Below, in pieces: positions 1 to 60,546 of a stretch of DNA of 64,000 nucleotides. The stretch is taken from NCBI RefSeq assembly GCF_018143015.1, contig NC_054743.1, positions 35,403,243 through 35,467,242 of the forward strand, written 5' to 3'. The notes beneath the pieces were generated by a model. It saw nothing but the letters and a program-made list of their open reading frames with translations, had not been told where the DNA came from and did not search any database. Source of the DNA: Lytechinus variegatus (Eukaryota). A program made the translations under genes and the position numbers. How positions within the stretch are numbered: position 1 is the first letter of the stretch; every line of letters begins with the position of its first letter.

Positions 1-257
1 AATTTACAGAAAAAAAAGAAAATTTTGCAGAAATTAATAACAGAATCATTCTGTAAATTCATAAAACAGAGATTTTTCTGATTTTTTTTACAGAACAGGT
101 CTGTTTATAAAAGGGGGAAAGAGAGTTTTATTTAAGGAAATTTGTATGGTTCCATATGATATAATGTAAGATCACGCAATCTTTTTAAATTACAGGTCAC
201 TGTTCTCGAGACTCTGCTGCAGGAACTTTTTTTTTAAAGAATACATTTCTAACAGTG
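1..257. mobile_element. MITE (CACTGTTAGAAAAAAT... family), copy truncated by the window edge
   Basis: Bases 1-257 match the right half, including the right terminal inverted repeat (TIR) ...gttctcgagactctgctgcaggaac...tctaacagtg, of the complete palindromic copy at 15888-16170. Confidence 0.7.
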
Positions 258-324
258 CATATACCTACCAGATTTCCATCTGGTTTTGCATGGTGATAAC
301 CGGTTATAACACACGCAGCAGCCC

Positions 325-877
325 CCCGGGGGGGGGGGACTTACATTGACGAGTGGATAGCATGCGCGACCAAAAAAAATGTAAAAAGGATGTCTTTTTC
401 ACGATAGGGCACGTTACGTACGTAACGTGATAAGGGTGTCAAAAACACAAAAATAATGAAAAAAAGGGTATCTATTTCGCTAGGAAAATTACGTGTTTAG
501 GGTTGAATTTTCGGGGATGATAAAACAAAATTAAAATGTTTTATAAAGGATGTCCTTTTTGCCCTAACACTTCGTGTTTAGAGTCCGATTTGCGCGAGGT
601 GTAGAAGGTGGGGTCGTACTAAACCAAATAAGGTAAAGCTGACGACCGAAGGACCACTAACAAAACATTCCTGTACTTGTTTAGGGGTTCATTTCAGGGA
701 ATATTTGCCAAGAGTATCGTTTTGTTTCCAATACTTGTTAAGGGTAGGGTTTCACACGCCAATACTTGTTAAGGGGTGCATTTTCAGAATATGGAAATTA
801 CGTGTTTAGGGTGCTTTTCGAGACCCCATGGTCGCGCATGATATCCACTCGTGAATGGAAGTGGACCCCCCCCCGGG
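325..877. mobile_element. Non-autonomous TIR DNA transposon, copy 1 (poly-G/poly-C termini, ~45-bp TIR)
   Basis: Left end ccc+G11+acttacattgacgagtggatagcatgcgcgacc is the inverted complement of right end ggtcgcgcatgatatccactcgtgaatggaagtgga+C9+ggg. The internal sequence is ~85% identical to the copy at 60547-61064. There is an internal acgttacgtacgtaacgt palindrome. Flanks GCAGCAGCC / GCAGCACC look like an imperfect 8-bp TSD. Confidence 0.75.
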
Positions 878-1927
878 GGCAGCACCCCGCTTCCCAGGGC
901 CATAGTTTATACACGGAATACACAGAATGATGATTAAGACATTATTATCGATGTTCAGTTTCCTTTTATTAAAAATATACCAGCTTTCGGCCATGTTGGC
1001 CTTCGCCAGGCCCACAAACGTAACAATATAACATGAACATAAATATTTTTTCTAAAAAAAGACTTTATACATGACTTGTAATGCATACTTATCTTTCAGC
1101 CAAATGAATCTGAAGTTATAGTTTTAAAAATTATATAGGTCAAGCCTTACATAATAATATTTAGATACAACATATGATTTATGTATAGACCAACATTATT
1201 CATTGTTATATTATTATTTTAGTTAGTTAGGTAAAAAATTAGAAGATATAGTTCGATAGTTTTACATGAGGGCGCTATACTGTGTAACAGTATGGATTAA
1301 CTTGGATTCTAACCTATTATGGTCCTAAGTGACCATGATAAACCATTGAATAAGCAGACAACACAGAATTGATTCGAGAGTGGTTTAAAGATACCATATT
1401 ATATTTGGTCTTCATGTAAAGTTTTACACACACTGAGTGTGAGAACACTCTATTGCACATTGTGTTCAAAGTTATTACACTGAGATAACTTGTGTTCACA
1501 CTGTGGTAAACAGTAGTACTGTCAACACTGCCATACACATACATGGCAGTGTGAAAAATAATTTGTAGTCATTCCACTGCAACAATGTGGGGCACCATTT
1601 TACTTTATCTTAAGTTACTGAGTATCAAAACGTCAAAGCAGTGGAATGACCATGTTAACAGTACTGTGTCCACGGTGTGAAACATAGCCAATCTGTGTTT
1701 CATTGTGTGTTGGTTCCGGCATGCATGGAAAGACTATATGTATCCATCAAATTTGATTGATGTTTAGTTCGTAAATTATAATTCGTAAATTATCATAGAG
1801 GCCCGCTACCAGATGGTACTTGGACGAGATGGTAATTGGACGAATTGGCAGTAGACCAACTGAAAATAAACCATTGCATTCACACCGTAGAGTGTGGACA
1901 CGCTTCATACCGACTATTTATCACACT

Positions 1928-2773: not shown

Positions 2774-3035
2774 TAGTGGAAATGTGACTGCAGCATAAGT
2801 TGACAAACATGCACGTATAACAGATAATAAAAGTCAATTTGCGTGTTGTGTAAATATTTTTGTGTATTTATGTTGTGTGTGCAAACAATAAAAAATCAAA
2901 CAAATAGTGTGAGGGAAATAGGGGCTTATTAATATTGTAATATTGTTATTATTAGGTAACATCATCATTATCTATATGAAATGAAGGCCTCCAAAGAGGG
3001 GGGGGGGGGGGCGTAGATCCGTCTCTGTACACATG

Positions 3036-3262: not shown

Positions 3263-3535
3263 ACGGTCTTTTTATGACACATGTCCAGATTATTTTGCGC
3301 TAATCTATATGTTCAGATGTTAAGTCGTGCTTAGTGTTTGATTAAGTGAATTGAATTGGTATGATCGACAAGCAGTTTGTTTTCGCCTAGCGGTATAAAT
3401 TCATTTTACTCCAATATCAATTTGACTTTAACGTGTACATATACATGTATCTGAGCTTTGAGAGTAATATCGTACTCGTACGCCAAATAGTGATTTTTTT
3501 TTGGGGGGGGCGGGGCGGGCAGGTTAGCCTAATGG

Positions 3536-4057: not shown

Positions 4058-5167
4058 TCAAGAAACGTCAGCTCTCCGATGATTACACAATCCCTTCCAA
4101 GTTTTACGAACAAACTCAGCCACTGCATGTCGATAGGTTTCCTTCAGGAGTAGATATATCACAGTGTTCAACCAACCATTGCACAAAGTCAACCTCGACG
4201 CGAGCTCCATTATGTTTGGAGGTATCCTTTTGCCACGCACGGCCGCCACAACTTCACAAATTGTAAAAGGCAACCAAGCAATATAAAATGCCCCAGCGAT
4301 CGATACCGTCAATATCACTGATTTTATTAGCCCGCGGTGGCGCATGTGACGTGCGAGTTTCTCGGCACGTTCGACATCCTTTTGAAACTGTTCCGTGGTG
4401 CGCGTTTGCGATTCAGTGCGCACGGTCGAAGCATTCACCATGGCAACTGCGGCTTGACTGGCAATCGTCCGAGCATGCCGCCGCACAATATGCAGCATTA
4501 AAACATAAAAAATAAGAAGCAAAATAGCGTACATCCACATGGAAATGGCAAAGCTGAATATCGTGTACGGTGCGAAATATGGCTGAGAAAAGTCCACCAA
4601 GCAAACTCCGAATTCCCGGTAGACAATGATGTTGAATCGATCGCCGGCGAAATACAGAACAAAAAACAATATGATGAAAGTTCCGAATGTTTGTGATACC
4701 ATTGTGGCAATTGCGCGCTTCCGATTGACAAGAGAGGCGTAACGTAAAGGTCTTGTAACTGCGATGAAACGGTCGACATTCAGGTAAAATACTGTTGATG
4801 AGGATAGTCCCGTTGTCACCGTCAGAAAATACCCTAGAGCTTTACAAAGCGGATTTCCAAACGGCCACTCTCCTCCGACGGCAGCAACGCTCATTGGCAA
4901 CAGTAAGATACCTGTGGCCAGATCAACGAGTGCTAAGGACATGTAGAACACACGACTGGCTTCATTCAGTTCTGCTAGGTGGGGCAAGATGATGAGGTTC
5001 AAGATATTGCACACAATTGACAGGACAGCGGTAATAGCGATCAGTGTGACTCCTGTTAGTGATTGCTGCGGGTCCGGTGAGGTCGTTGGCCCAGGTCCAG
5101 GTCCAGTGAAAGGATACGACGATGTCGTACTGCCATATTCGATTATGCTCATATTCTCTAGATCCAT
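4058..5167 (-). CDS. Class A (rhodopsin-like) G-protein-coupled receptor, single coding exon, 369 aa (orphan; ligand class not assignable)
   Basis: The 1110-nt ORF has seven hydrophobic segments. Class-A landmarks are present: N in TM1 (CNILNLII), LALVDL in TM2 (D2.50), DRF in place of DRY at the end of TM3, W in TM4, FAPY in TM5, AWLPF in TM6, and NTVIY as an NPxxY variant in TM7, followed by a basic C-tail. The N-terminus has a GPGPGP linker. Confidence 0.8.
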   Translation of the reverse strand: MDLENMSIIEYGSTTSSYPFTGPGPGPTTSPDPQQSLTGVTLIAITAVLSIVCNILNLIILPHLAELNEASRVFYMSLALVDLATGILLLPMSVAAVGGEWPFGNPLCKALGYFLTVTTGLSSSTVFYLNVDRFIAVTRPLRYASLVNRKRAIATMVSQTFGTFIILFFVLYFAGDRFNIIVYREFGVCLVDFSQPYFAPYTIFSFAISMWMYAILLLIFYVLMLHIVRRHARTIASQAAVAMVNASTVRTESQTRTTEQFQKDVERAEKLARHMRHRGLIKSVILTVSIAGAFYIAWLPFTICEVVAAVRGKRIPPNIMELASRLTLCNGWLNTVIYLLLKETYRHAVAEFVRKTWKGLCNHRRADVS

Positions 5168-13200: not shown

Positions 13201-15057
13201 CATACAAAGTATTTTTTTTCTATTTCCTTTGTACTTCACATTTACTTTCTCTTAACCGCTACGAGGCAATTTGCGAATTTGCGGTATATAAAACTATTAT
13301 CATTTTTCATTAATGACGATAAGAGTCATACCAACAATAATATATAAAGAGAATAACAACCCACCAAAAAAGTAATATCAAAATCAAGAAGATGAATCAG
13401 CATTTTGTTTGTCGGGGTGAATTTCTCTTTACAGATATTCAAAGACACTTATACTAACTCCTCAAAAACAAATAAATAAAAGCCGCAACCATCACAAGTA
13501 CTCGGCCAGTGTCAACAACAATTGTGTTGGAATGTTGGTTCCCAGGGTGATCTGTTGTTGTGAGATGAACTCCAGTCATTCGAGGACTCCCTTTGAAATG
13601 ATGAGATTTGTTTTCCACTTTCACCGTCTCGACCTTTAGAAAACCAAGGAAATTGATGTGGCAACGAGTCCACCAGGGAATATCTAATACCTGAGATGAT
13701 TCGCAGTGAATTTTTTAATAAGGTGTTTATTGTTTGCATTTTTCCCCACGTACGAAGTTATTGACAAAACGTCTCTTCGGTCATGGATTTTTCCCCTTTT
13801 ACAAATAGAAGGTTTTGACAACAAATACAAAATTAAGTCAAAGCATGAGCATGAGTGTGTAATATTGTGTGTGACGAATATTCCTTGTTTTCTCGTATAG
13901 GGCTTCAAAATGGTAAATACACTAAACATGGCCTGCAAGCTTGAATTAGCGTAGGACGGTCTATCTGTTATTTCTTATGTCAGTTTTTACAAAGGTTACT
14001 GTTTTCCAATGTTTGAAATATGTTATGAGTCTTTTTTATTATTTGTATATTAAATACATGACCAATTCAGCCATTTGGCTGCGAATCATTTTTTGATATG
14101 AACCTTAAATTGAATTTGTTATCACTTTATTATTTAATTTGGCTGTGAAACCTATCATCATTAATTTAAACAATAATGACAGTGTGTTATGAAGGTAACT
14201 TTCATCTTCTTCTTCTCTATAAGTACAGGCCACCGTCTGGCGTATTGTCGTACGTTCATCGTAATGAACAGTCTAATGGATATCAAGGTTATTTCCATTT
14301 CCAAATATACCCCTAGGCACAACAAAGACGATCAAAATATACAAGTCAATATTCAATTTTTGCGATTGAAATCAATCAACACTCGCTTAAAAGACTTGTA
14401 TAATCACAATTCTATATTCCTAGGTCAGGTCTAATCACCAACAAGCAATCTACGAAGAAGTTTTTGTATTATATCAGTATGATATCATTATTAAGTAAAG
14501 TTCGATGGAAACTATAATTTCTGGTATATATATAGTGCTCAACTGTATAGTATATAAACGAGGTTAAGGTTGCATCAGGAAAAAAAATAGTAAAAAGAGA
14601 GAGACAACGGAAGAAATAAGCAAGAAAGGTGAAAATTGTGAATGAGCGCTTCTTATAAGGCCATCGCACACCTGCAGATTCGCGTCCAAGATCCGTTTTG
14701 GAGCAAATTGCATTCTGCTCATTTTATGAAAATATGAATGAAAATTATCTCTTTTCTTTTGACGTTCAAATAGTGAAAGAATACTAATTCAAATAAAGTA
14801 AAAGAATACTAATATAACACTTAATGATTGGAAGCCTTTAATTTCGAATAAAGGCCAAATTGGCTTCAAATCGTAGCCAATCGTGCAACTGCTCTGATGT
14901 CATGATGACTAAAAGTAATGAATTTGCATTTAGGATAATAGCATAGTCGTCACATAAGTATTCTTACGATGATTTCGAACATTAAATATCAGTAAGATCT
15001 CCCATTATCAATATTAGTTAAGTTAAGTTAAATAACATCCACCTTTAATGCGGAAAC

Positions 15058-15222: not shown

Positions 15223-15887
15223 CCAAATCATCTACATTTTATGAAGGTCCATTATTATGAAATTCTTTACCTGATTGCATAATCGGTATAGCAAATCTTT
15301 AAACCAGTTTAAGACAAAAAAAATCTATTAGATAAAATGCAATGTAATTGACAACTTATATATTTCACTTAATTACTTGTACTACCCCTCCTTCATAATT
15401 CTTTGTTTTTTATTCTGCTATAAAAAAACTTTTTGTTGGGTTATTGTTTTTGCGATATAATTTTGTACGATTTGATGTGTACCATTTATATTCGGCAAGG
15501 AGCACTGTTTTTGTTTTCATACAACAGGAGTCTCTTTCGACAAGCATTTTAGCTCATCGTGACTCCCTCACATCGTGTAATATTGTTGCTTGTTACAAGT
15601 ATTATACTTTGGGTTTTTATGTGGAAATAAATGAATAAATAAAAAGTACATCCTCGTTCACTGCATCTTTATTCACGATTATTTCAAATCTATGACAAAA
15701 GACCCCGGCAAAAGACGAACATTTTGAAAACTATTTGTTTTCAAAATTGTTTTAAAAAATTATGAAACATTTTTAGAGCATGAGTATTCACCATCACTTC
15801 CATTAACAGGTATCGACTCGAATTTAGTTTACATGCAGGGCCCCTTTAACTTACGAAAATATACCAGTGAAGAAGTGCATGAATATA

Positions 15888-16170
15888 CACTGTTAGAAAA
15901 AATAAAAGAAGTTCCTACAGCAGAGTCTCGAGAACACCTGTAATCTTACCGAATTGCGTAATCTTACGGGAAATTGGTATTTGATGTATGGAATCTTACA
16001 AATTTCCTTGAATAAAACACCCTTTCCCCTTTTTAAACAGACCTGTTCTGTTAAATTGCAGAAAAATTCTTGTTTTATGAATTTACAGAATGATTATTAC
16101 GCAATTCGGTAAGATTACAGGTGTTCTCGAGACTCTGCTGCAGGAACTTCTTTTATTTTTTCTAACAGTG
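15888..16170. mobile_element. MITE, CACTGTTAGAAAAAATAAAAGAAGTTCCTGCAGCAGAGTCTCGAGAAC family, TA-flanked
   Basis: ~75-bp TIRs: cactgttagaaaaaataaaagaagttcctacagcagagtctcgagaacacctgtaatcttaccgaattgcgtaat is the inverted complement of attacgcaattcggtaagattacaggtgttctcgagactctgctgcaggaacttcttttattttttctaacagtg. TA sits at 15886-15887 and 16171-16172. Confidence 0.8.
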
Positions 16171-16417
16171 TAGGCCAGTGACGTATATAGGACCATATAA
16201 TACGTGTACGGGTAATTTTGGTTTCGTTCAGCAATTTTTCATCGCATTATTTCCTTGTTTAATATTTATTTAAGGCACATTTCATCAAAATCCCATGAAT
16301 AAATAAGTGATTATAATGTTTCTACGGACATATTTTACACACCCTCCCTAAACATAATCTATCACTGTCAGAGACTTGAGAACGGGTTGTAAAAATGTTC
16401 ATACGAATGCTTATTGT

Positions 16418-19760: not shown

Positions 19761-20099
19761 CTTCCCTTTTACTTTTATCGAGAAATGTGAAAAAGGGGAT
19801 AAGAATAGACGGCTGACAATACATAGGCCTACAACTCGTCAGTGTATTATTGCGATCAGGTACCAATCCAAAGTTGGATTGTAGTTTTCAATCCAACAGG
19901 TTTAGAATCCAGTCTTATCCGATTGAAACTTTTGATCCAATTTTGGATGGGTCCCAGACCACAATCTACTTGACAACGAGTGACAACCCCTTAAGCGATG
20001 GTGATCACGGCGAAGAGATGTAAAAATCGAATAAAGACCTAAAAGTCAGTGTCAGGGCTCTATGAACGATTTTTTTCCACTGGAGTTGCTGATGTAAAT

Positions 20100-20290
20100 A
20101 TGAAAAGCAGAAGAGAAAAAAAGTTTCCAATAAAAAATCGAGGTCATTTTGGCCCCCAAAACAATTTAAAAGCAAAAAAGACGAAAGAAAAAAAAGGTGT
20201 TCACTACAAAATGGAGGTCAAATTTGTCCCGAGAAATTTAAAAAGCAGAAAATAGGGTTTCCCAAATAAAAAAAATCAGGTCATTTTGGT
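20100..20290. repeat. Tandem repeat, ~65-bp unit x 3
   Basis: aaaagcagaagagaaaaaaagtttccaataaaaaatcgaggtcattttggcccccaaaacaatttaaaagcaaaaaag...aaaaagcagaaaatagggtttcccaaataaaaaaaatcaggtcattttgg. Confidence 0.5.
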
Positions 20291-20329
20291 TACATTTCTC
20301 TATTTTTACACCTTTCAGAATACCTGGGG

Positions 20330-20415
20330 TGCTGCCTATGGAGAATAATACACGCAGCACCCCCAATGAAAATCTTGGGGTGCTTTAGCACCCCCGCTTC
20401 CCAGGGCTACGGACC
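20330..20415. repeat. Repeat fragment, uninterrupted paralog of the sequence flanking the transposon at 325-877
   Basis: aataatacacgcagcacccccaatgaaaatcttggggtgctttagcacccccgcttcccagggctacgg. Compare the left flank ...ataacacacgcagcagcccccc (300-324) and right flank gggggcagcaccccgcttcccagggccatag (876-906) of the insertion. Confidence 0.55.
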
Positions 20416-20811
20416 GTGTTGTGCATTTTGGCGAAAATCCCTATGCTATTGACTGTTTAGGAGGTCAGTTCCTCGCTCATGGCTTTAAAGTGCATAGATT
20501 TCAATCAAATTGAATCATTTGGGCGAACGGAAACGAGAAAATAGAAGATCGTATCTTGATGGAAAAGGGGACAAAAACTGACATTACAGCAAATTTCAAT
20601 CACACTACACAAGCAAGGTGATATCAGATTCAGAGGGTGAATATCTATAGAGGCATATAGCGCTGGGGGTAACGTGCGTGCCGAGATGGATTTAGCAAAA
20701 GGCACTAGCAAAATACAACAACAACAACAAATCAAATGTTACAATACTATTGAATATCTGACCAACAATTTGCCTGAGTACAACGCCATAATAAATAAAA
20801 ATGTTTTTAAA

Positions 20812-21415
20812 GGACAAGTCCACCCCAACAAGAAATTGATTTGAATAAACAGAGAAAAATCCAACAAGCATAACACTGAAAATTTCATAAAAATCGGATG
20901 TAAAATAAGAAAGTTATGACATTTCAAAGTTTCGCTTAATTTCACAAAAGGGTTATATATGCACATCCTGGTTGGTATGCAAATGAAGAGACTGATGACG
21001 TCATCCATTCACTATTTCTTTTGTATTTTATTATATGAAATATTCTAATTACCTCCTCATTGTCAAGTGAAACAACGATTAAATTATTCCTCCATGAACA
21101 CGTGGAATTACCATTGTTTAATACGGTTATATGGTTCAGTCAAGTTGGTCCTTAATGTCAAATCTATAAAAAATGAAATACTGTATAATTCAAACAATAA
21201 AAAAACAAAAGAAATGGTGAGTGATGGACATCATCGAATGACTCACCTAGTTTAATTGTGCATATCACTGTTTTGTGAAAAATAGGCGAAACTTTAAAAT
21301 GTCATAACTTTCTTTTTTACATCCGATTTTGATTAAGTTTTCAGCGTTATGCTAGTTTGATTTTTCTCTATTATTCAAATCAATATTTTTCTTGATCTTT
21401 AATAATGCAATTTGG
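20812..21415. mobile_element. Foldback element, TGATGACGTCATC family, TTAA-flanked
   Basis: Left arm ttaa|aggacaagtccaccccaacaagaaattgatttgaataaacagagaaaaatccaacaagcataacactgaaaatttcataaaaatcggatgtaaaataagaaagttatgacatttcaaagtttcgcttaatttcacaaaag...actgatgacgtcatcc. The right arm, aaagaaatggtgagtgatggacatcatcgaatg...ttttgtgaaaaataggcgaaactttaaaatgtcataactttc...gatttttctctattattcaaatcaat, is its reverse complement. Confidence 0.75.
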
Positions 21416-24364: not shown

Positions 24365-24610
24365 CACTCGGGCTGTACCCATTGGCGGCGGAAGCCAAAA
24401 ATTTTAGGAGGGGACAACCAAAAAATTTTTGACAAGCAAAAAAAAAAAAAAAAGGTTCTCAACCCAAAAATTTTAGAGGGGACGTAGGAAAATAAATTGA
24501 CAAGCAAAAAAAAAAAGAAGAAAAAGAAAAAGTCATCAACAACAAATTTAGGGGGGCACGTCCCCCCGTCCCCCCCCCCGCTTCCGCCGCCTATGGCTGT
24601 ACCCATTTGG
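24365..24610. mobile_element. TIR element, GGCTGTACCCATTGGCGGCGGAAGC family
   Basis: ggctgtacccattggcggcggaagccaaaaattttaggaggggac...ggggggcacgtcccccc...gcttccgccgcctatggctgtaccca. A partial relative is at 18355-18450. Confidence 0.65.
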
Positions 24611-29345: not shown

Positions 29346-30229
29346 AAATATCCGTGTGCCGCTACTTTATACACACAATATATTGATTGTAATTTCATTC
29401 ATTCTCGGTATCCTTCGCCGAGATGTAAAATTGTAAAAAATGTATTGTAAAGGTTTTCCCCTCCAAAACGGATGAATGGTTGAAAATCCAAATTTTCTGG
29501 GGGCTTATCAGGCCTCCACACGACAAAACATCCTTTATGAGATTTCAAAGCAACTCGGACGATAATCAAACAAATCCCAGGCTAATGTGTGCTCCTGAGG
29601 GCATGAAGATGATATTGTGGTTAGATTTTTTTTGAAGCATTTAAAAAAAAATCTCATTTATCATACCTTTTGTCAATGTTCCAGCTTTCTTTTGCATGCT
29701 GCTTTTCGAACTTCCCTAGTCTCTTCAATATTTCCATTTCTCTTTGTTTGAAAAAAAAAAACATCAAAAGTATTTAAAGGTTAAAAGTTTCCCGGATTTC
29801 AGATATAAATCTCAAAGATTACTGAAAAGTGTATGGAAACCCATTTCGATCCCACGCGAACGTGACAGGATGCTACATATTTCATAGCTAGTTTGTGCAG
29901 GCCTTCAGAACTTCAAAAGGTTTGATAAATATCCGTCTGTGATTAATTGATCAACCTCTGTTGACGACATCGCCCACCGTCGCCGCCGCTTCCGTCGGAC
30001 AAGCAGACAAAGAATGAAATGGGGGAGTCGTCCAGGATGCCCATCCCTACACATGGAAGATGTTTTTAATAGAAAAATATATGTACAAAAAGTATGGATT
30101 CCTACATTTCTTGAAAAGAGGCATCCATGATAAAGATGAGTGTTCTCCTCTTCTATCTTTTCTTACTTTCTTTTCCCATTTTCTAACCCTTAACTTTTCA
30201 ATTCCGTTCACATCCTCTCTCCTTCCCCC

Positions 30230-30545
30230 ACCTCTCTCCCTCTCCCACACACATCCACTCTCTCCCTCTCTCACACACACACACACACAACCTCTCACAT
30301 ATTCACTCCCTCTCTCTCTCACACACACACACACACTCTCACACATCCACTCTCTCTCTCTCACACACACACAAACACATCCTCTCTCTCTCTTACACAC
30401 ACACACACACATCCACTCTCTCTCTTACACACACACACACACACATCCACTCTCTCTCTCTCTCACACACACACACATCCTCTCATACATCCACTCTCAC
30501 ACACACACACACACATCCTCTCACATATCCACTCTCTCACCCTCC
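30230..30545. repeat. Compound microsatellite (CT)n(CA)n
   Basis: ctctctctcacacacacacaca...atccactctctctctc repeated. The ORFs 30047-30412 and 30060-30590 are low-complexity artefacts. Confidence 0.9.
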
Positions 30546-30772
30546 CATTTATTTCTCACTCTCCCTTGTTATTTTTTCTTTTTCTTTTAAAATATCACAA
30601 CACACCCACCTATGCGCACCAAACCCACCCTATTTCCAATAGTGTATGCTTGTCAAAACACTATACAGATGGAAAGATAATCACTATATAATCCATACTA
30701 TAAGAAAATAAAGTCATTTGGAGTAATCAAAATTAGCAATTAATTTGTAATAGATATCTTCCATGCATGGCC

Positions 30773-35903: not shown

Positions 35904-36427
35904 CTGTAACAGCAAATGACGCATTTTACGATTGAAATTTCCACTCATTTCATTATTCAACAAACTACAAATTTACCGAGTCAATTTTTTGACAAATTCT
36001 CTGATCATCTTATTCACCTGTAAATATTGTAATTTGGTGTTCTCTTCATTATCTGTTAGTTGCATCTGCTTCAAAAGATTACATGATGCATTTACTTCTT
36101 TATTATACACACACAAATAAAAGGTCAATAATAATATGATAAATGATACCATGAAGCCATTAAAGTTGAGTTAAATATGTAGCATAAATACAAAGATACA
36201 ATGATATAAAAAAGAAGTATATGGTATCAATATGATTAAACTCTGTGAAAATAGAGAGGTCCATTTTTAAAGTGTCATACATTAGATATGCTCTTTTACA
36301 GTTCAATGAGGTTTTGCCTGTTCAGGGGTGGCCTAAGGGTAATTTGAAGGGGGGGGGGGATGGCCAAGTTAGCCTAAAAGTTGCATCATCCTTATGCCTC
36401 AGCCCATAATAGGTGATTGTCAGAGGC

Positions 36428-36929: not shown

Positions 36930-37102
36930 TACTACTTACTCTGGATCAAGTCTCCGGTCTTCCTCTGTAAGCTCTGGGATACGATCTAGTCCTATCGACA
37001 TTCTCTGGGCGTTGATTTGTTCTTTGAGGCAAACGTATTCCTGGTACATCTTCCAAGCTGCCTCAAACGCCTTGTTCCTGTCTCCCTCTGTGTTCTTTAT
37101 CA
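36930..37102 (-). CDS. ZC4H2: ZC4H2-like protein, coding exon 3: IESVIKNTEGDRNKAFEAAWKMYQEYVCLKEQINAQRMSIGLDRIPELTEEDRRLDP(E)
   Basis: Acceptor ctcttttcactctccctttaag|ATTGAG and donor CCAGA|gtaagtag. Only one of the three frames is open across the 173 nt. Predicted coiled-coil composition, similar to the middle of vertebrate ZC4H2. Confidence 0.75.
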
Positions 37103-37246
37103 CGCTCTCAATCTTAAAGGGAGAGTGAAAAGAGGGAGGGATGGACGCTGACGGAAGAAAGAAATAAACATTATATAAGTCTATGATGTTGATGATAATG
37201 ACAGCAATGCTATAATAATGATGTTGATGTTGATGACATCGATGAA

Positions 37247-37545
37247 GCGCCGTGGTGTAGCGGTTCTGACTCTAGCCTTGTAATCAGAGGGTTGTGTGTT
37301 CGAATCCCACCATGGCCTAGCGCCCTTTGGCAAGGCGTCAATCCACACTTTGCCACTCTCACCCAGGTGCTAATTGGGTACCGGTAGGACACAACGGTCA
37401 TTGTGGTTGGTTTAGCAAGTTTGCGCCTAACAGGCTGCTTGGAATGCTATGAATCCAGTGACCGGGTAATAATAATTGTAAAGCGCTTTGAACAGTCGTA
37501 GATTGATAAAGTGCTATATAAATGCCAATTATTATTACAATGATA
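37247..37545 (+). mobile_element. Composite tRNA-derived SINE (in intron 2 of ZC4H2-like gene), followed by a microsatellite
   Basis: tRNA-like head gccgtggtgtagcggttctgac...aatcagaggg...gtgttcgaatcccaccatggc. Central domain ...caaggcgtcaatccacactttgccactctcacccaggtgctaattgggtacc. Tail gtaaagcgctttgaacagtcgtagattgataaagtgctatataaatgccaattattatta. Same architecture as 63001-63290 and 49483-49800. Confidence 0.65.
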
Positions 37546-37980: not shown

Positions 37981-38250
37981 CTTCGAAAGATACTGTTTAC
38001 TCTTTAGAAGAAGTGCATTGTGATCAATTTTTGTCTTGTTTTTCTCTTTAACTCTGCATTTGTATTATAGTTCGGCCATGCCTGACAAGCACCTGTTACT
38101 GGTCCCATTTACCATGTCTATTACATGCTTCATGTGTGTATCAAATTTTCCTGCAATTTTTTTTCATTGTATCCCTGATTGTTTCATTATAACCTGTAAA
38201 CATGTGAATACTGACAAATGAAATGAAATCAACGGGGAATTGTTACTCAC

Positions 38251-38422
38251 TGTGTTAATGTCTGAATGTATCTGTCTGAGTTCCTCTACGTGTGCCAGCC
38301 TCTCCTGGTTGAGCAGGTCCATCTCATGCCGATATTCCTTTAATCTATCCTCCTCCTTCTCGGCCTCCTGCATATCCACCAGGAGCCGACCCTTCATCTT
38401 CTCCAGGTGGACCGTCTGCGAC
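38251..38422 (-). CDS. ZC4H2: ZC4H2-like protein, coding exon 2: (R)SQTVHLEKMKGRLLVDMQEAEKEEDRLKEYRHEMDLLNQERLAHVEELRQIHSDINT
   Basis: Acceptor ccctcggtttccag|GTCGCAG and donor AACACA|gtgagtaac. The run EYRHEMDLLNQERLAHVEELRQIHSDIN parallels vertebrate ZC4H2 ([31 protein letters not shown]) as I recall it. Confidence 0.8.
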
Positions 38423-38523
38423 CTGGAAACCGAGGGATTATGGAAAAGAAAAATCATTATTCTTCCTCAATAGAAAATACCTCCATTTATCATACTATTC
38501 AGACTATGCAGTTTCTTAACCCC

Positions 38524-38935: not shown

Positions 38936-39221
38936 TTCCTCTTATTTTGTTGCAATTTGCTAGGCTAGGGTTAAGAAACAAACAAGATTCACTGTCTATC
39001 TAAATGTGTTTTCCGTGAAGGGGGGGGGGGGGGGCGGAAGCACATCATCAACATTACAGAAATGTTTAAGAACATTGAAACTTTAAAAAAACGGCATTAA
39101 TGGAAAGAAGAGAAAGGTCCATTTTGACTCAAAGATGAAAGCAAGATCAGAAGAGCTGCCACATTCGCCATGCATTTCAGCCCATTTCTCTAAAGCCACC
39201 TTATGGTACATATTGCTTATA

Positions 39222-39865
39222 CTTAACGGGCAAGTCAACCCCAAGTTATCAAAATGTGGATTTGAATAAGAAAATGTAAAGAAAAACAATCAAACAAGCA
39301 TAACACTGGAAATTTTATCAGGTTATCAAATTTCAAAAATTTGCTACTTTTCAGAGAGCAGTTATAGGCACAATGGTGAAATGCAAATGAAAGAGCCACA
39401 AACTATTTAATTTGGTTTCCACTTAATAATAATAAATATTTCAATATTCTCCAATTTCACAATGAGGAACCAACTTCATAGAACCACAATAAAGTTGCAA
39501 CAATTGCAATCCAACATATCAAAGGAGGAATCAAAATCCGATATGTCACCTTATTTACTGGGTGCCATCCAGATATTGTGTACAGATTCAAACCTTGTTT
39601 CACATCATGATGAAAAAAAGAAGATTTTTTCATATCTCACATGACAAAATAGTGGGTGAGTGATATGATATTATCACTTCCCTCATTTGCATACCGATCA
39701 AGATGTGATTAACTGTTTTGTGAAATCGAGCAAAATTCTACAATGTCATAACTCTACATTCCACATCCAATATTGATGAAATTTTCAGGTTTATGTTGTT
39801 TGATTTTCCTCTTGTCATTCATTTATCAAACCAATTTTTTTGTTGGGGAGGACTTGTCGTTTGAA
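39222..39865. mobile_element. Foldback element, TGATGACGTCATC family (diverged copy)
   Basis: ttaa|cgggcaagtcaaccccaagttatcaaaatgtggatttgaataagaaaatgtaaag...ggtgaaatgcaaatgaaagag on the left. The right arm is ...catttgcataccgatcaagatgtgattaactgttttgtgaaatcgagcaaaattctacaatgtcataactc...gttggggaggacttgtcg. Confidence 0.65.
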
Positions 39866-45667: not shown

Positions 45668-46861
45668 CCCGCCCTCCTTCTCTTTACAGTACTTAACAAT
45701 TTCAGTTAAGTGTTTATAGCCAAGAAAAGATGATCAAAGTACATTTTATTGTATATTTAAGACTCACTTAAATTCATCAAGTAAAAAAATAAAATCTGTT
45801 TCATTTGAAAGAAGATATGCATTATGCAATACATATTATCTACATGTATGTATTTGTCTCAAAATCATACAGTTTTTCATTTCAAAATATTGAAAAAAAA
45901 TATTGATTGTGACATTTGAAATGAGTAATATTTGACAAATAAGGCCCTAATGGCAGACTTGCACGCAATATACAGGAGAACAGAAAACATAAAGGACCTA
46001 ATGATAATAAAAATATTAATACAATTTGCCCTATGAAATCAGACAATCACACTATCTATAACTTACTAATACAGATAAAATGACACTAGCAACAAATTTC
46101 AAGCACCCATGATACTAATACAATCTAGAATTGTCCTTAAGAAAATGAAAGAAGAGATAAAAGAGTGAGGGAAAGGGGAACGATGACAGTTTGATCTATC
46201 CGAGGATAATCTGATACTGGCTGGGAGCCGACGGGTTAATACGGGGCAACAGGAGGCTCGCTTCCCAAATCACTGAGCAGGGACGGATAAAATGCCCCCA
46301 ATCAGGCTGTTAACACCTCCATCAATTATTCAGGCCGGAGGCAAGCTACCAACCACCGAGCATTATCTGGCAACAAATCCCTATACTCCGTCATTCTTTG
46401 GTGTCTTCCAAGCTACCTTATAGCTCTCCCCGGGTGCGTTTATCATCTCTTTTCTGCGGTAAAAAGAATCACGTTTTCAAAACGTGTTTTGAGGTTCTTT
46501 TTGCAGATATGATATTAAATGCAAAGGTGTTTTGATTGTTGCCGATTGGGCTTGTAAAGACTTTTCGGATTGCACAAATTTGTGTGAATTTTAATATTTA
46601 TGTCCGAGCCTGAAATATTAATCTACAATGCTGCATAAGGGACAAACGCAAAGTTGTATTGAAATGCAGTTGAACTTCCATCACTTCTGCCCATTTCAGG
46701 TTCCAGAGTATAAACTGACCCACAATTCAAACTGATTTGAGAAGACAAGAAAGAGAATATTTAGAGGTTGACAAATAAAATTCAGCAAGAAATTTTATAA
46801 GACACAGATCATATGTAAGATAGAGAAAAGGATATATTGATACATAAAGATGCTCTACTTT

Positions 46862-47478
46862 TTAAAGTACAAGTCCATCTTGCCAACAAAAAAAGTTGAT
46901 TTGAATGAAAAGGGAAAAACCAAGCAAGCATAGCACAGAAAGTTTCATCATGAAATGGGATGTAAAATAAGAAAGTTATGACATTTCAAAATTTTGTTGA
47001 ATTTCACTAAACAGTTATATTCACAGAGGCCTACTGGTCGGTATGCAAATATCAAAGGGGACTGATGAAATCGCCAACTCTCTATTTCTGTTGCATTTTC
47101 TAACATGAAATATGAAATATTTTAATGTTTTCATTGTCATGTGAAATAAAGGCTTATTCCTCCCCTGAACATGTAGAATCACCACTGTTTGTTTTATGGT
47201 TCAGTCAGGTAGGTCCTTATTGTGAAATCTGTAGAAATTGAAATATTGTATACTAGTAAATCAAACAGTAAAAAAAAAAGAAATGGTGAGGGACATCATC
47301 GACTCTCTCACTGAGTTGTGCAAATAGTAACTGTTTTGTCAAAAAGGGGGATTTAAAATGTCATATAACTGTCTTATTTTACATCCAACTTTGATGAAAT
47401 TTTCAGTGTTTTGCTTGCTTGATTTTTCTCTAATGATTCAAATCAGCATTCTTCTTGGGTGGACTTGACCTTTAAAGA
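46862..47478. mobile_element. Foldback element, TGATGACGTCATC family, TTAA-flanked
   Basis: ttaa|agtacaagtccatcttgccaac...ggtcggtatgcaaatatcaaaggggactgatgaaatcgcc on the left. The right arm is ...gagggacatcatcgactctctcactgag...gggtggacttgacct|ttaa. Confidence 0.75.
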
Positions 47479-47800
47479 CATAATGGGTAAAATCATAAAG
47501 GGTCTTTTTATAAAATTCCAGAACTTTTATGTGTGCTTTACATGGATTAAAAATACCCGGGAGGTATTAAAAAGCAAATCAAATTTGTGCAGACAATTTC
47601 AAAATAATGTCTGTAACTGAAAAAACAAGATAATGTTTCAGTTGCATGGTGTTTAATAGTCACATTTTAGTACATGGAATAAAACGGGGAAGGGGATTCC
47701 AGGGAGTTGGGAGTGATTCCATGTTCATTTTTTACTTTTATGAACACTACATACTGGTTTCGAAGTGTGTTTTAAAAGCTTCATTTAAAGATAAAATTCC

Positions 47801-49482: not shown

Positions 49483-49800
49483 TTAAGTGCAGCATGTGGG
49501 GCTGTTTCTGAATAATAATAAATAAAAAATAACATAGCATTTGTATCGTGCACATACCCACCTTGCTCAAGGCGCTCCTATATTACCAGGCTATTAAAGC
49601 TAGTCTACCGAATCCGGTGCTTACATCTTTTTTCTGAGGAATTACTTCCTGCCGGCAACCATTTACCTCACCTGGGTTGAGTGCAGCACGATGTGGGTAA
49701 ATTCCTTGCTGAAGGAAAACATGCCATGGCTGGGAATTGAACCCACGTCCCTCATATTGAAAGATTAAAGTCTTAACCAATAGACCACAATGCCCCCGAT
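49483..49800 (-). mobile_element. Composite tRNA-derived SINE (minus orientation)
   Basis: The reverse complement reads ggggcattgtggtctattggttaagac...gagggacgtgggttcaattcccagccatggcatgttttccttcagcaaggaatttacccacatcgtgctgcactcaacccaggtgaggtaaatgg...gagcgccttgagcaaggtggg...(ATT/ATA)n. It is ~85% identical to 63001-63140. The ORF 49583-49843 is an artefact of this element. Confidence 0.7.
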
Positions 49801-51235: not shown

Positions 51236-51769
51236 GCCCTATTGAATGGGTCTGTCCCCAGCCAAAAGGATATGAAATAAAAAGTTCAAATACATGTAGT
51301 GGATGTATTTTGCGATTTACGAAATGGGCTGTAAATTTGGGATAAAAATTAATGTTGATAGCTTTGAGATATTTACAAGTTAAGTGTTCAAAGGGGTCTT
51401 TGAAAAGAAAAAAAAAGAACTAGAATTTAATTCGTCATGCGGACGAATTAGGTGGTCTGTCTTTGTTCTCGGCATCATGATCACTATTACCATGTTCATG
51501 CATATCAATATGACCTTCATGATGACAACGGAATGCTCATTATGGATGGAATACTTGTGAAAGACGGTAGATGATAAAGCACTGTGAAAAGGGTCCGGAA
51601 AATGGTCTCTTTGATGTATGACTATACATGTATATGCATGTGATATGAAAAAAGTGATTATAATCTGTTTTATCTTGCTAAATTTCAACTTTTATACCAT
51701 AAAATCATCATAAAGGATCATGTACGAGGTGGTAAAAAGAAAAAAAAATGGAAAAAAAATCATCTTGTC

Positions 51770-51850
51770 TACCCCAGGACTCGAACCTCCGCCCTCGAGA
51801 AAGCAAGTCAAATGCGTTATCCATTGAGCCACGATATTCCCCATAGAGAT
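51770..51850 (-). pseudogene. tRNA-like fragment (probable SINE head or pseudogene)
   Basis: The minus strand reads ggggaatatcgtggctcaatggataacgcatttgacttgctttctcgagggcggaggttcgagtcctggggtagac. The D-loop and T-loop consensus are present but the stems are incomplete. The adjacent catagagattacacg recurs at 52066-52080. Confidence 0.35.
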
Positions 51851-53162
51851 TACACGTAAGCAATTTTGAGAATTACAATTCCAATTTTGCAAGTGAAATA
51901 CGGGCATGATCCCGGCATCTGATCAAAAAATGAAGGGCACACTTCCGATAGCCCAGAATCTCAGCTACAACATATTAAAAGCTCAGGGAAAGCTGACAAG
52001 AAAAAATGGAGATATGGCTCACGAAATAGAGGAATGTCGAATCTAGTTTTGGGAAAAAGTCATGTCCCATAGAGATTACACGCAAAATGAGGAAAAATGA
52101 CATGCCTCTTTTCATCGCTGTTTTACGCAATGATGCGTTTCTCAAAACGAAAATTCATGTTTACTGAGGAGAAAGAATACATTCTAAACTACAACATATC
52201 AAAATCTGGGCGAAAAACGATCTATATTCGAGAAGTTACAATCAAATTTGCATAAATTTGATGACGTCATTTTTGAAAAAATGAAATTTTTAGTTTAGGC
52301 GCCATTTTGATGACGTCATGATATAATTTAGGGATAATGGTGACACGAAATCAAATCTACAACTAATACTCTATCGATATATGAAAAAAAAATTGGGGGT
52401 CAATGGACTATTTACAGAGCTACAGTGAATTTTCAATAGGCATGTTTTTGCACATATATGGCCTATAGTGAGAGCTCGCGCGCACACGTGCTGCAAACTT
52501 TAATGGGTGTTAATTTCTATATTAATGGTTGTAGAAGGTTGATCAAGGTATCAAATTGCTCAGAATTTTATTAGCAATGCAATGATATTAAAAGAAACGG
52601 TTTTTCTGCGTTGCGTTAAGGTGTAACGCGACCGGAACCGTACCCAAAAATTTTTATAGGTCATTTGGACGATTTTTTTTACCTTTGACGCGCGCGTACG
52701 CGCGCGTCATGACCTTTACATGACCTTTGATGACATTGACAGTTGACCCTTGACATGAAGTTAATGTCATGTAAATATTGTTAATTTTTGATAATTGATA
52801 ATGAAGATATGATCAAATGAAGAATTTTACAAAATGGCGCGTAGATGACGTCATCATTACCATATGACCTTGAAAAGCTTATTTTGCCGTCTCTATGATA
52901 GATTCTATATATGACGAAAAAATCAGCAAAATTGATTCAGCCAATTTCGAGAAAAGTTGGCGACAAACATAGGTGCCAAGAATAAAGAAAGAAATAAAGA
53001 AAGAAAATTCTGACGAAATCAATAGGTGATCTGTCATAGACAGACCACCTAATAAAACATTACCAAGAGATAGTGCTAAATATATTCAAAACTGAAATTC
53101 ATGTTTAATCAGGAATCAAGTATAAATGGTCACTGCCCTTTCGTAAAAGTGACATTTGAAAT

Positions 53163-54976: not shown

Positions 54977-57817
54977 TATTAGAGAAAGATCAACCTCCAT
55001 GTATTAAAAATAAGGGACTTTTCCCAATTCTGACTATAGACTGTTGCGTTGTCATTACTGTGTATCGTCTGTTGTTTTTGGTGGAAAATTTTGTACAGAG
55101 GCTTTACCGATTCCTACAGAATCCAAGCATTATCCCGCCTGAAAAATTGTGTCACGGTTGAGGCGGGATGGCAGGCTTGGTCTCCAGAGGGCGGGGGATA
55201 CAATCCAATTTTCTTAATCTCTATCTACCCATGGCCACTCCCAAAGGGGACCGTGGCAAAATGGCATACTGGATGCCGACGGCGAAAGTGCAGTCTTAAG
55301 TTGCTCTTTTCTCTCTCACTCCTTGTCAAGTGGTGGGAGTACTTGCGACTGAAGAGACATAGTAGAGATGATGTTAAATGGAGAGGAGATGATGCCCTAT
55401 AATCGAAAAGAAATAATTGCCTCACCACTCCTATTACATCCTCCCGACGATCTAGCATTGAGCAGAGGAGAAACGGAAAACCATCCCTGCCAGATCGTGT
55501 TCAACTCCCGGACCCTTACTTGTTTGGTTATTCAAAAGGCATTCTGCGGTGTTGATGCTCTTGCTCGGAGAGCCATTTATTTCTTCCTGCGAGCGGGCAA
55601 GACAACTCTACGAGGGAGTAATTTAAGACATTTGCACAGAAATGCCAGATAATTAACATCTTGATTGAAAATGTGTATCTGGGGAAGGCGAGATGTTATC
55701 TTGTTGATGGCGGAACGATTTCATTTGCGCTGTGTTGTTCCTTGTCGGTTTGTGTGGTTCTGGCAGGCCATTAGATCTTAATGCCATCGGCAAGAATACA
55801 ATGGGCAAGCAAGTGAACTATTCCATCAAACGGTCTCTGTTTGTCCAAAAACGGTGCAAAGAAATGTCCCAAGGGAACGATCATATGCAAAATAGAAGAG
55901 ATAAAAGAAAGGGTTTCCTGAGAAGGACATAAAGAAGAGAGCTACCTCTCTTGATGGATGGGTCTCATTTGCCAGTAAAAATGAAAAATATCAAATATAC
56001 ATCTTAGAGACTTGAAGGGAGAGAAGATTTGGTTAAAGACCAGAACAAAGAGAATAAGGGGAAAAGAAGAGTTACTTGTGGCCGGGAAGTGTCGGTCGTT
56101 TGCATCTGGGTTAACAGGATCTGTAAGACTATGCGTAAGAAGTTAATTTCTTCCTCGGGCAAAGCGGATTTGGAAAACAAGACTTTGGTTTGATGCGCCG
56201 AACCTGACACTAAAGAGACAAGCAGCGACAGCGTTTCGAGGTGGATCTTAAGAGCTCGCTAGAGAGGACAGGTAACAAGACAAAAGCAAAGGAAAAAAGT
56301 TTTGATCAGCGAAAAGGCGAAAATGGTGAAAACACAAGAGTTTACTTGGAGAAGAAAAAGTTTAAACATTCAGGAGTGAAGAACGTGGCAGAATGAGGTC
56401 ACACAGAAATAGGGATAGGCCATCTCATTTTTGAGGAAATTTGGGAAGAATAAATATCACTCAACAAAATATCAACAAAAACAGAAAGGCATGGAGAAGT
56501 GTCGATGCCTCGGTGGGATCCCTCTTTTTGATCTAGGAAGCTCATGAGGGGCAGTATTCATTTTTTTTTTCACAACAAACAGAACTTGTTGCTTTTTGAC
56601 ATATTTGAAGACATGAAGAGTTCCTTTTTTTCAACACAAAACTAATACACCCATCAAAGTCAAGATGAAATAGTGTTTCATGATAGATCTACAAGTGCAC
56701 ACATATTATAAACGAACCAACAAATATTCAAATGAAAATGTGTTACAACAGAGATTTCAAAAATCAACCATGATTCTGCAGAACTTCCTTTGAAAACTCA
56801 ACTTTTCCTGCATTTCATTATATAGATCTATACCACCTTTTTTGAGGAAGGAAAAGAAATTATGCCATTCAAGGAACTGCAGTATGGAGGTCTCTTTCAA
56901 CTTTTATAATGGATTTGAATCCAAAGCAGCTAGGTATTAGATCACTGCAGTAATTGGTGTACAGGACACAGGCTCGTTGCTGCACTATCACAAACGACAA
57001 CAAAACTTTCTGCAGAAACGGCCTTCGAAACTCACTCTTTCTCAGCATTTCATGTTTGCATTTTAAAACATTCATTCATTGGGATGTCAACTCTTGGAAA
57101 AGGTTTAACTGCTCTGCTACTGTACATGAAGAAATCATTGCAAGCACTTTCTATTATTTTTTCTCTCTCTATATAGCATCTGGATTAAAAAATGATTTTT
57201 TTTTAAAATCTGCTTCAATACCCAGCCCATAAAAAAAGGAGTTTTGATTGTTTTAAACATCCCACATAATATTCCAGAAAAAAATATTACCAGCAAGAAA
57301 GTACGTAAGAAAAAATAGATTTGCACTATATATTTTTTTGCATAATTTTAATATACATTTTTGTAATACCAATATGTTAGTACAATTAGTACAACTCATC
57401 TTACAAAAAACAGAACAATTTCAGCTAAACAATGAGATAGCATCTCCTCCTTCCCCCTTCTCATTACTTTACAATTAATTTTGTAATTGAATTGAATCGA
57501 CCCCTTTGATAATCATAATTATCATCTCTTGTACTGTATTTATATCGTTTCCCTGTATAATGCATGTTTAGAACATATAACCTGGGCTTAATGTTGTAAT
57601 TGTTTTCCCTTTTTTATCAATAAAAGGTGATCTAGTTATATATATAAAAAGAAAATTACTTTTGCAGTGATTTCTCAAAGGTCATAGGGACATTTTATAC
57701 TGCACACAATATATGAAAGCAAGTTACAAGACCTTTTTTAGTGTGATTCAAAAAATATATTATTCATTTGCTTCTATATGAATGCAAGTCTTATAGCTGA
57801 CTCCTATATCTTAAAGG

Positions 57818-58432
57818 TCAAGTCCACCTCAGAAAAATGTTCATTTGAATAAATAGAGAAAAATCAAACAAGCATTATGCTGAAAATTTAATCAAAATCG
57901 AATGTAAAATAAGAAAGTTACAGTATGACATTTTAAAGTTTCGCTTATTTTTCACAAAACAGTGATATGCATAACTCAGTCACATGCAACTAATAAAGAC
58001 AGTCGATGATGTCCCTCACTCACTACTTTTTTTTAAAAATGTTTTTATTGAATTAAAAATTTTTTCATTTTTCACAGATTTGACAATAAGGACCAACTTG
58101 ATTGAACCATACATACATGTAGTATTAAACAATGCTGATTACACATGTTCAGGGAGGAATTAATCGTTATTTCACATGACAACAGGGAGAAAATTTGAAT
58201 ATTTCATACAATAAAATACAAAACAAATAGTGAGCAAGTGATGTCATCAGTCTCCTCATTTGCATACCGACAAGGATGTGAATATAACTGTTTTGTGAAA
58301 TTAAGCAAAAATTCAAAATGTCATAACTTTACTATTTGCATCCGATCTTCATGAAAATTTTAGTGGTATGCTTGTTGGATTTTTCTCTATTCATTTAAAT
58401 TGACTCTTTGTTAGGTCAGACTTGTCCTTTTT
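57818..58432. mobile_element. Foldback element, TGATGACGTCATC family (CG motif decayed to TGATGTCATCA), TTAA-flanked
   Basis: ttaa|aggtcaagtccacctcagaaaaatgttcatttgaataaatagagaaaaatcaaacaagcat on the left. The right arm is ...gagcaagtgatgtcatcagtctcctcatttgcataccgacaaggatgtg...gatttttctctattcatttaaattgactctttgttaggtcagacttgtcc. Confidence 0.75.
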
Positions 58433-59129
58433 AAGCTGGTTTAGGCTGGTGTGAACACTAATTGAATCAAGGGTGCCAGTCAGGAACTGAGCCTGAAATA
58501 AAATAAGAAAGAACACATAATGGATAAGGCCTGTAAAAGGTCTCAAATTGATCTAGTTGAACTTGTCAGGGCCTGAAATCAGGTACATAACACAAAAACT
58601 TGTATCTTAGCTGAAAACAGAAATTTCTATAAGGCAGGTGTGAAAGCGTCTACTGTGAATGATGATAATTTGCCTCAGAATGCAAGTAATAAGAGATAAC
58701 GCGGGATACTTCTGTGCAAATACATGTATGTATTTAACAAGTGATGAAAAGTGCAAGACTTGTTGCAAAATAATCACTGTATATACCAGCTGTTCAAATT
58801 GACAAATAGGGGAAGTGTAAAGAGCTTGTATATGGAAAAAGGAAAAAGATCATAGAAATCAAATCGTGCTGAAAAATTGAAGAAGAGGTTGAGCCAAAGA
58901 GAAAAATAAGAGACAGAGATAGACAGTGAGAGAGAGGCCGACAGACAGAAAGACAGAGTCAGAGAGTGAGAAAAAGAGAAGTGAAGAGAGAGCGCTGGCG
59001 AACTCTGCTGTATAAATAATGATTAATTCGCTAATATTACACTTTCATTAATTCCAATCAATATTTAGTGCCCTATCAAACACTTTGCGCATATGGTTGA
59101 AGACTAATTCCCATGTTCACTATCTTAAA

Positions 59130-59520: not shown

Positions 59521-59544
59521 GGAACACTTTTCAGTGTTTAAAGG

Positions 59545-60135
59545 GATGGTCCAGGCTGAAAATATTTATATCTTAATACATACAGTAGAATGCACAGAGC
59601 GAAATGCCGAAAATTTCATCAAAATTGAATAACAAATAATAAAGTTATTGAAGTTTAAAGTTTAGCAATATTTTGTGAAAACAGTCGTAATGAATAGTCA
59701 TTAGGTGGGCTGATGATGTCATATCCCCACTTTCCGTTTTCTTATGTTATTACTTAAAATCATATTTTTTTCATTATTTAATACTTGTGTGAATAATATG
59801 TCTCCCTTATAATGAAATAAGTTGCAGTAATAAATATCTAAATATGCAATAAAACAGTTGTCAATCCAATTTTTCTAGTTTTGGAGGAGAAAAATTTGAA
59901 TAAACCTAATTTCACATAATAAAATACAAAAGAACAAGTAGGGATGTGACATCATTAGCCAACCTAATGAATATTCATAACGACTGTTTTCACAAAATAT
60001 TGCTAAACTTTGAAATTCAATAACTTTGTTATTTTTTGTTATCCAATTTTGATGAAATTTTCAGCATTTTGCTCAGTGAATTCTAAGTCATTTATTTAGC
60101 TATAAATACTTTCAGCCTGGACCATCCCTTTAATA
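59545..60135. mobile_element. Foldback element, AAAGGGATGGTCCAGGCTGAAA family, TTAA-flanked
   Basis: ttaa|agggatggtccaggctgaaaatatttat...ggtgggctgatgatgtcatatcccc on the left. The right arm is ...gggatgtgacatcattagccaacctaatg...tttcagcctggaccatccct|ttaa. Confidence 0.75.
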
Positions 60136-60184
60136 GGAATATTGTGGAGGATTTCTGATCTAGGAAAGCTGAGCTGTTAAAAGG

Positions 60185-60330
60185 GTAGTCCACCTCATGA
60201 AAAAGATGGTTTGAAAAAAAAGGAGAAAACCTAACAAGCATATTAGATTGGATGTACATGTAAATTAAAAAAGTTTTGACATGAATTTCTGAGTTTTGCT
60301 TAATTTCTCATGTGACATCCCACCCTCGCA
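60185..60330. mobile_element. Half copy of the TGATGACGTCATC foldback family
   Basis: gggtagtccacctcatgaaaaagatggtttgaaaaaaaaggagaaaacctaacaagcatattagattggatgtacatgtaaattaaaaaagttttgacatgaatttctgagttttgcttaatttctcatgtgacatccc. Confidence 0.5.
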
Positions 60331-60546
60331 TTTCTTTTGTATTGTATATGAAAAATGGAAATGTTTGATTTTTCCTCAATTTAATGTGAAACAGAGTAAA
60401 TGGGCATGTATGATTCCTCCCTATGTGATATTGCCTTTGTTGAAATCTACCGATTCAACATAAATTTTCCATATGGCCAGTTCTACAATGAAACTTGTAT
60501 ATATACATGTACGTAGACTCTCCCATGACTATATGAGTAACACTGT

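Follow-up and report, generated by a model that had tools for sequence, protein, structure and literature searches.

The window, by which we mean the whole 64-kb stretch of DNA from the sea urchin Lytechinus variegatus that was analyzed, has a GC content of 35.7% and is packed with interspersed repeats. Its left part carries an intronless gene for a rhodopsin-family GPCR on the minus strand (4058-5167; Pfam 7tm_1, E = 7.6e-30). The encoded protein is identical to L. variegatus XP_041461381.1, named "trace amine-associated receptor 1-like," and its ortholog in the sister species Lytechinus pictus shares 97% identity with it. A more distant homolog (79% identical) appears on two Logan contigs, on both of which the gene stands alone. 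Approximately 3.2 kb downstream of the GPCR stop codon lies the first of two copies of a short transposable element that is the subject of this study. The second copy lies toward the other end of the window, and we found no convincing exons within 10 kb of it.

A BLAST search of positions 300 to 906 against the 64-kb window returned exactly two copies of the element, both in the same orientation: copy 1 at 325-877 (553 bp, plus strand) and copy 2 at 60547-61064 (518 bp, plus strand). The boundaries of copy 1 were set by the CCC...GGG ends of copy 2, and they become 323/324-878 if the target-site duplication (TSD) of copy 1 is 8 or 9 bp long. We found no copy in 21 kb of the corresponding L. 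pictus locus, described below, and no autonomous copy within the 64-kb window. The ~85% identity between the two copies given in the initial annotation is a fair figure, with individual BLAST segments 82.7 to 87.4% identical and a global alignment in which 441 of 498 aligned columns agree (88.6%). The global alignment also reveals a 60-bp internal block that is present in copy 1 (446-505, plus strand) and missing from copy 2. This block belongs to a set of three ~80-bp units that repeat loosely and contain AAAGGATGTCTTTTT and TACGTGTTTAGGG motifs. Throughout the interior of the element, the loosely repeated motifs TACKTGTTWAGGG and AAAGGATGTCTTTTT keep a single orientation. Copy 1 contains in addition a perfect 20-bp palindrome, CACGTTACGTACGTAACGTG (410-429), which has TTACGTAA at its core and survives in part in copy 2 at 60642-60660.

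No open reading frame is conserved in the element: the longest spans 75 codons and is not maintained in both copies. The element also has no match to an Rfam family at gathering score; the G-rich end gave a match to mir-484 at 22 bits, against a gathering score of 40, that we treated as chance. A metagenome scan with the TIR core GAGTGGATANCRTGCGCRACC produced four matches on contigs with a GC content of 50 to 63%, each confined to the pattern region and with no second arm, and these too were attributed to chance. No further copies were found in a scan of viral contigs, and a comparison of the translated frame conserved through the 3' TIR with a large protein collection gave no candidate gene call overlapping another copy.

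Both copies are bounded by terminal inverted repeats (TIRs) of ~47 bp (48-nt arms) that start with CCC-poly(G). In copy 1, the 5' TIR, CCC-G11-ACTTACATTGACGAGTGGATAGCATGCGCGACC (325-372, plus strand), spans 48 nt and is 85% complementary to positions 829-876, and the 3' TIR reads ...GGTCGCGCATGATATCCACTCGTGAATGGAAGTGGA-C9-GGG (829-877, plus strand). The outermost 12 nt at the two ends, CCCGGGGGGGGG and CCCCCCCCCGGG, are 100% complementary, and BLAST recovers the inverted match within the copy with E = 2.8e-11. The TIR arms of copy 2, delimited like those of copy 1 by alignment and inverted-repeat pairing, are CCC-G12-CGGGGGCGGGCACTTACGAGTGGATACCATGCGCGACC (60547-60600, plus strand) and ...GGTTGCGCACGGTATCCACTCGTCAATGGAAGTGGCCCCTCTGGG (61019-61064, plus strand), and they are 86% complementary. 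The TIRs have a conserved core, CACTT(C)CATTGACGAGTGGATANCATGCGCGACC, and three of the four termini read CCCGGG.../...CCCGGG. The G tracts at the four termini are G11, G9, G12(+CG5CG3), and an interrupted G4. Such a tract was probably present in the ancestral TIR, and its length varies.

Long homopolymer termini were initially regarded as unusual for an element of this type, a point that loses force in this sequence. G or C runs of at least 7 nt number 25 in the window against 0.72 expected from composition, an enrichment of ~35-fold, and they occur in many unrelated contexts, including T(n)G(n) junctions and other repeat families. Because this enrichment extends over the whole window, the poly-G/C ends are less odd than they first appear. 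The caps are part of the element ends, and their present length has most likely been inflated by the homopolymer expansion common in this genome; they are best seen as G-run ends and not as a special structural device. Examples of G/C runs elsewhere are found at 2998-3011, 3503-3510, 10594-10602/10685-10695, 24570-24579, 36349-36359, and 39020-39034; those at 10685 and 23051 are part of a different repeat family.

Direct-repeat comparison at the ends of copy 2 identifies the same 8-mer, AACACTGT, on the left (60539-60546) and on the right (61065-61072). This is the only zero-mismatch 8-mer solution and it is not extendable, in agreement with the perfect 8-bp TSD proposed for this copy beforehand. 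The sequence surrounding copy 2 is itself a MITE, diverged, TTAA-flanked, and long-armed with a Kolobok-like signature. Its left part occupies 60179-60538 and its right part, recognized by alignment to the host family, 61073-61224 (both plus strand). The host family is abundant in the window, with non-coding members of ~600 bp that have ~250-bp inverted arms. Besides the host of copy 2 (60179-61224), members lie at 20796-21394, 39225-39865, 46840-47481, 57811-58443, and 59534-60133, and related ends occur at 11954, 12065, 16419, 36431, and 36898. When the site of copy 2 is reconstructed by joining 60179-60546 to 61073-61224 with one AACACTGT retained, it aligns to the host family from terminus to terminus, and six paralogs read ATAACTGT or ATCACTGT once across the junction. 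These six paralogous empty sites independently confirm the 8-bp TSD of copy 2.

In the host family, most ends show 5'-AGG...CCT-3' termini (AAAGGNCAAGTCCACC) with TTAA immediately adjoining them on the outside, an arrangement that is the signature of Kolobok (PMC9587614). A second sub-family has the ends AAAGGGGAAGTTCACC. As abundant non-coding elements with inverted repeats in the same genome, the Kolobok-type MITEs that host copy 2 resemble the element studied here, but it has neither their TTAA flanks nor their AGG...CCT ends.

The duplication at copy 1 is less sharply defined. In the 8-bp register, the left TSD is GCAGCAGC (315-322) and the right TSD, placed by direct-repeat comparison and by the L. 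pictus site, is GCAGCACC (879-886). Registers of 9 and 10 bp, which add one or two further C residues, are also possible, and each of the three has one mismatch. The length is thus ambiguous between 8 and 10 bp because C and G runs blur the boundary of the element. To examine this site in a second species, we turned to the orthologous locus of L. pictus (L007; GCA_037042905.1, CM073229.1:18943436-18964524), which was reached via the GPCR protein cluster and taken with 10-kb flanks. L007 is collinear with the reverse complement of the window from position 1 to ~12.7 kb. Window positions 156-295 align with L007 13937-13797 and positions 879-1996 with L007 13782-12671, with ~14 bp between the aligned flanks in L. 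pictus versus 583 bp in L. variegatus.

Base by base, the L. pictus site reads ...GATTACACCCACAC GCAGAACC CCCACTTCCCAGGGCCATTG..., with the target in the context ...ACAC GCAGAACC CCCACTTCCCAGGGCC... and the element absent, and the L. variegatus site reads ...GTTATAACACAC GCAGCAGC (C5-G11...element...C9-G4) GCAGCACC CCGCTTCCCAGGGCCATAG.... The target GCAGAACC is single in L. pictus (L007 13782-13775, minus strand), where there is neither an element nor a footprint. Since L. pictus has the 8-mer once without the element, GCAGCAGC/GCAGCACC is confirmed as a TSD, and the suggestion that GCAGCA(G/C)CC at both junctions represents an 8-9-bp duplication is upheld, with registers of 8 to 10 bp. Position 5 is C in both TSD copies versus A in L. 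pictus, as would be expected if the L. variegatus sequence was duplicated.

The unoccupied L. pictus site indicates that copy 1 inserted after the species split and is specific to the L. variegatus lineage. This polarity comes from a comparison of two species, and the element might instead be ancestral and have been lost precisely from L. pictus, whose site would then be an excision site. We consider such a loss very unlikely. As a rule, a cut-and-paste element leaves both copies of its TSD or a footprint behind when it excises, whereas L. pictus has exactly one 8-mer, and a paralog of the site within L. variegatus is likewise unoccupied.

That paralog bears on the nature of the sequence that copy 1 entered, which the alignments show to be a member of an older, short hairpin-forming repeat. 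The left half of this repeat lies at 264-322 and the right half, GCAGCACCCCGCTTCCCAGGGC, at 879-900 (both plus strand), as delimited by alignments with the paralog and with the L. pictus site. The uninterrupted paralog lies at 20310-20407 (plus strand) and was defined by flank alignment, folding, and the L. pictus probe. The flanks of copy 1 match 20344-20407 collinearly at 17 of 19 positions on the left and 20 of 21 on the right, with a joint score not equaled by any of 2969 random windows. The initial annotation had taken 20330-20415 as a contiguous empty site; the region is a true paralog with collinear flanks, but 24 to 31 extra bases separate its halves in comparison with the target of copy 1, and it therefore does not represent an exact empty site. 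The paralog has AGCACCCC twice in direct orientation, at 20356 and 20387, and folds into the hairpins GGGGTGCTGC/GCAGCACCCC and GGGGTGCT/AGCACCCC, with stems of 10 and 8 bp (z = -2.7); it has no match in Rfam. Because AGCACCCC is already present twice in the paralog, the window alone confounds the inference of a TSD at copy 1, which is settled only by the ortholog.

The L. pictus empty site, being from a different genome, serves as an independent probe for this repeat. It matches the window at 20307-20365 (75% over 64 bp, E = 6e-7) and at 20387-20407, and in a three-way alignment, the L. pictus empty site and the paralog are 73% identical over 85 bp. As the empty site alone matches 20307-20365, the flank of copy 1 is repeat and not part of the element. 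A profile search of 85 kb found no further members, and the sequence can be called a repeat on the basis of the two loci seen, not a demonstrated high-copy family. The L. pictus ortholog and the match of the probe to the paralog together back the original proposal that a TIR transposon inserted, with duplication of its target, into an older repeat.

We also weighed a reading that places the real termini of a longer element in the flank sequence common to copy 1 and 20344-20407, and that makes the paralog a version of this element with an internal deletion. Such a reading can draw on the sequence CCCAATGAAAATCTTGGGG, bounded by CCC...GGGG, that lies between the two AGCACCCC repeats of the paralog, and on the fact that the paralog also folds into hairpins. 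It is hardly credible, however, given that copy 2 has different flanks with no trace of this sequence and has its own perfect TSD directly outside CCC...GGG, and that in the L. pictus ortholog, the flank is continuous and single-copy without the element. The similarity at 20330-20415 thus belongs to the flank of copy 1, and the element itself is bounded by CCC...GGG.

Two other repeats adjoin these sites. Immediately to the left of copy 1, positions 46-262 hold a degraded paralog of a 287-bp MITE at 15886-16172; this repeat ends near 262 and does not cross the copy 1 junction. The MITE at 15886-16172 looks young, as its 77-bp TIRs are 99% complementary, and the degraded copy predates the species split, as it is present at the orthologous position in L. 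pictus (L007 ~13797-14112). Immediately upstream of the hairpin paralog, at 20096-20290, about three degenerate, A-rich units of ~70 bp are arranged in tandem (…AAAAGCAGAA…GGTCATTTTGG).

Taken together, the two copies very probably represent a non-coding MITE with an 8-bp TSD that moved by cut-and-paste and is nested twice in older repeats, with copy 1 specific to L. variegatus. The direct support for a MITE, drawn from two copies, comprises TIRs, TSDs that were checked against empty sites, lengths of 553 and 518 bp (under ~800 bp) without coding capacity, two unrelated insertion sites, and one orthologous and six paralogous empty sites. In these respects, the element is an ordinary MITE and a well-documented one. 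We infer that it was mobilized in trans by a DDE-type cut-and-paste mechanism. A transposase encoded elsewhere in the genome would bind the ~47-bp TIRs, with their CACTTCCATTGACGAGTGGATANCATGCGCGACC core and CCC-poly(G) cap, and excise the element, which would then re-insert at a staggered 8-bp cut; repair of this cut would generate the 8-bp TSD. Copy 1 entered the short hairpin-forming repeat downstream of the GPCR gene after the divergence of L. variegatus and L. pictus, and copy 2 entered a TTAA-flanked MITE that belongs to an older family.

At K2P = 0.104, the two copies differ from each other to a degree similar to that seen between L. variegatus and L. pictus over the same flanks (0.05-0.13), a result compatible with activity close to the split or later. 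The post-split insertion of copy 1 likewise places activity of the family at about that time or later. Given the 60-bp indel between them, the copies may go back to source elements that differed slightly.

The superfamily of the element is less clear. The hAT terminal consensus is YARNG, and the Ac target is nTnnnnAn. The end signature of piggyBac is CCC...GGG, P ends start with CA, and the ends of Merlin and MuDR start with G. To our knowledge, none of P, Merlin, and MuDR starts with CCC, and we know of no superfamily signature, among those checked or familiar to us, that fits CCC...GGG ends together with a ~47-bp TIR and an 8-bp non-TTAA TSD.

A hAT-superfamily MITE is possible, although we view this assignment as less likely than not. 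An 8-bp TSD is a hAT hallmark, and hAT elements are common in animals including sea urchins, with Buster elements in Strongylocentrotus purpuratus (PMC3517528). The TSD of copy 2 is exactly 8 bp, and that of copy 1 is compatible with this length. The hAT-derived MITEs Mar and Vege of Drosophila willistoni are similar to our element in being non-coding and 500 to 900 bp long with TIRs and an 8-bp TSD, as well as in their nested insertions and their restriction to particular lineages (PMC3517528). However, hAT TIRs are 5 to 27 bp long (11-12 bp in Mar and Vege) with CAG-type ends such as CAG(G/A)GGTAGGC in Mar, and the Buster target is nnnTAnnn (PMC3517528). The TIRs found here exceed this range at ~47 bp, and the termini, CCCGG(G)n, are not of the CAG type. 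Nor do these termini conform to YARNG, and the duplications AACACTGT and GCAGMACC fit neither the Buster nor the Ac target, this comparison of targets being weak evidence with n = 2. Of the earlier suggestion that the element is hAT-like or P-like, the TSD length fits, whereas the ends and the TIR length are a poor match to hAT.

We lean slightly toward another superfamily with 8-9-bp TSDs (P, Merlin, MuDR/MULE, Zisupton, or Novosib) or an undescribed lineage. The mismatch of the termini with hAT points this way, as do the TSD of 8 bp, possibly 9 to 10 bp at copy 1, and the relatively long TIR. Against it, the P, Merlin, and MuDR ends (CA, G, and G, respectively) differ from the CCC of the element. 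Mu-type elements are long-TIR'd, with ~215-bp TIRs and 9-bp TSDs (PMC2774946). Non-autonomous Mutator/MuDR elements resemble the one described here in their longer TIRs, their G-rich ends, and a TSD length (9 bp, range 8-11) that could accommodate the ambiguous 8 to 10 bp of copy 1, but copy 2 has a TSD of exactly 8 bp, the TIRs are far from ~215 bp, and the ends are CCC.

A piggyBac-type element would account for the outermost 5'-CCC...GGG-3' bases, since the CCCGGG.../...CCCGGG found at three of the four termini is like the piggyBac signature. We nonetheless regard this assignment as almost certainly wrong: the duplications, AACACTGT and GCAGCA(G/C)C, are 8 bp long and variable in sequence, with TTAA at neither copy. 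Together with the empty sites, these two non-TTAA TSDs contradict piggyBac, whose TSDs are TTAA-specific (PMC9587614). Kolobok and KolobokP, with TTAA or 3-5-bp TSDs and 5'-RR...YY-3' ends, likewise disagree with an 8-bp TSD and CCC...GGG ends; KolobokP, for which the paper lists L. pictus, was rejected on its 3-5-bp TSDs and RR...YY ends (PMC9587614). It is improbable, in our estimation, that the piggyBac-like CCC...GGG ends, G-homopolymer cap, ~47-bp TIRs, and 8-bp non-TTAA TSDs mark an undescribed cut-and-paste lineage. The combination of end sequence and TSD length is the only mildly unusual aspect of the element, which probably belongs to a known superfamily.

The main value of these results is for annotation, in that they provide a clean, lineage-specific MITE insertion together with the unoccupied orthologous position in L. 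pictus. The two species are used as developmental models, and the copy 1 insertion could serve as a presence/absence marker. The insertion also documents activity of a DNA-transposon family at about the time of the species split or later. An intact autonomous partner, if found, would be a candidate endogenous transposase for an organism in which transgenesis tools are still developing. Should the lineage prove to be undescribed, its autonomous partner in Lytechinus might be the basis for a new family or a divergent clade.

Several other features of the window are worth recording. Two open frames on the minus strand, at 36939-37271 and 38167-38466, resemble real exons of a coiled-coil protein. 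A tRNA-like sequence at 49722-49794 (minus strand) matches the Rfam tRNA family at 33.1 bits without an ARAGORN call, and similar sequence is found in translated stretches at 62888-63160 (plus strand) and 51695-51922 (minus strand); as it recurs in this way, these are probably copies of a tRNA-derived SINE. Finally, a long imperfect microsatellite of the (TG/CA)n type at 30047-30590 gives rise to spurious "CVCVCV" and "THTHTH" open frames.
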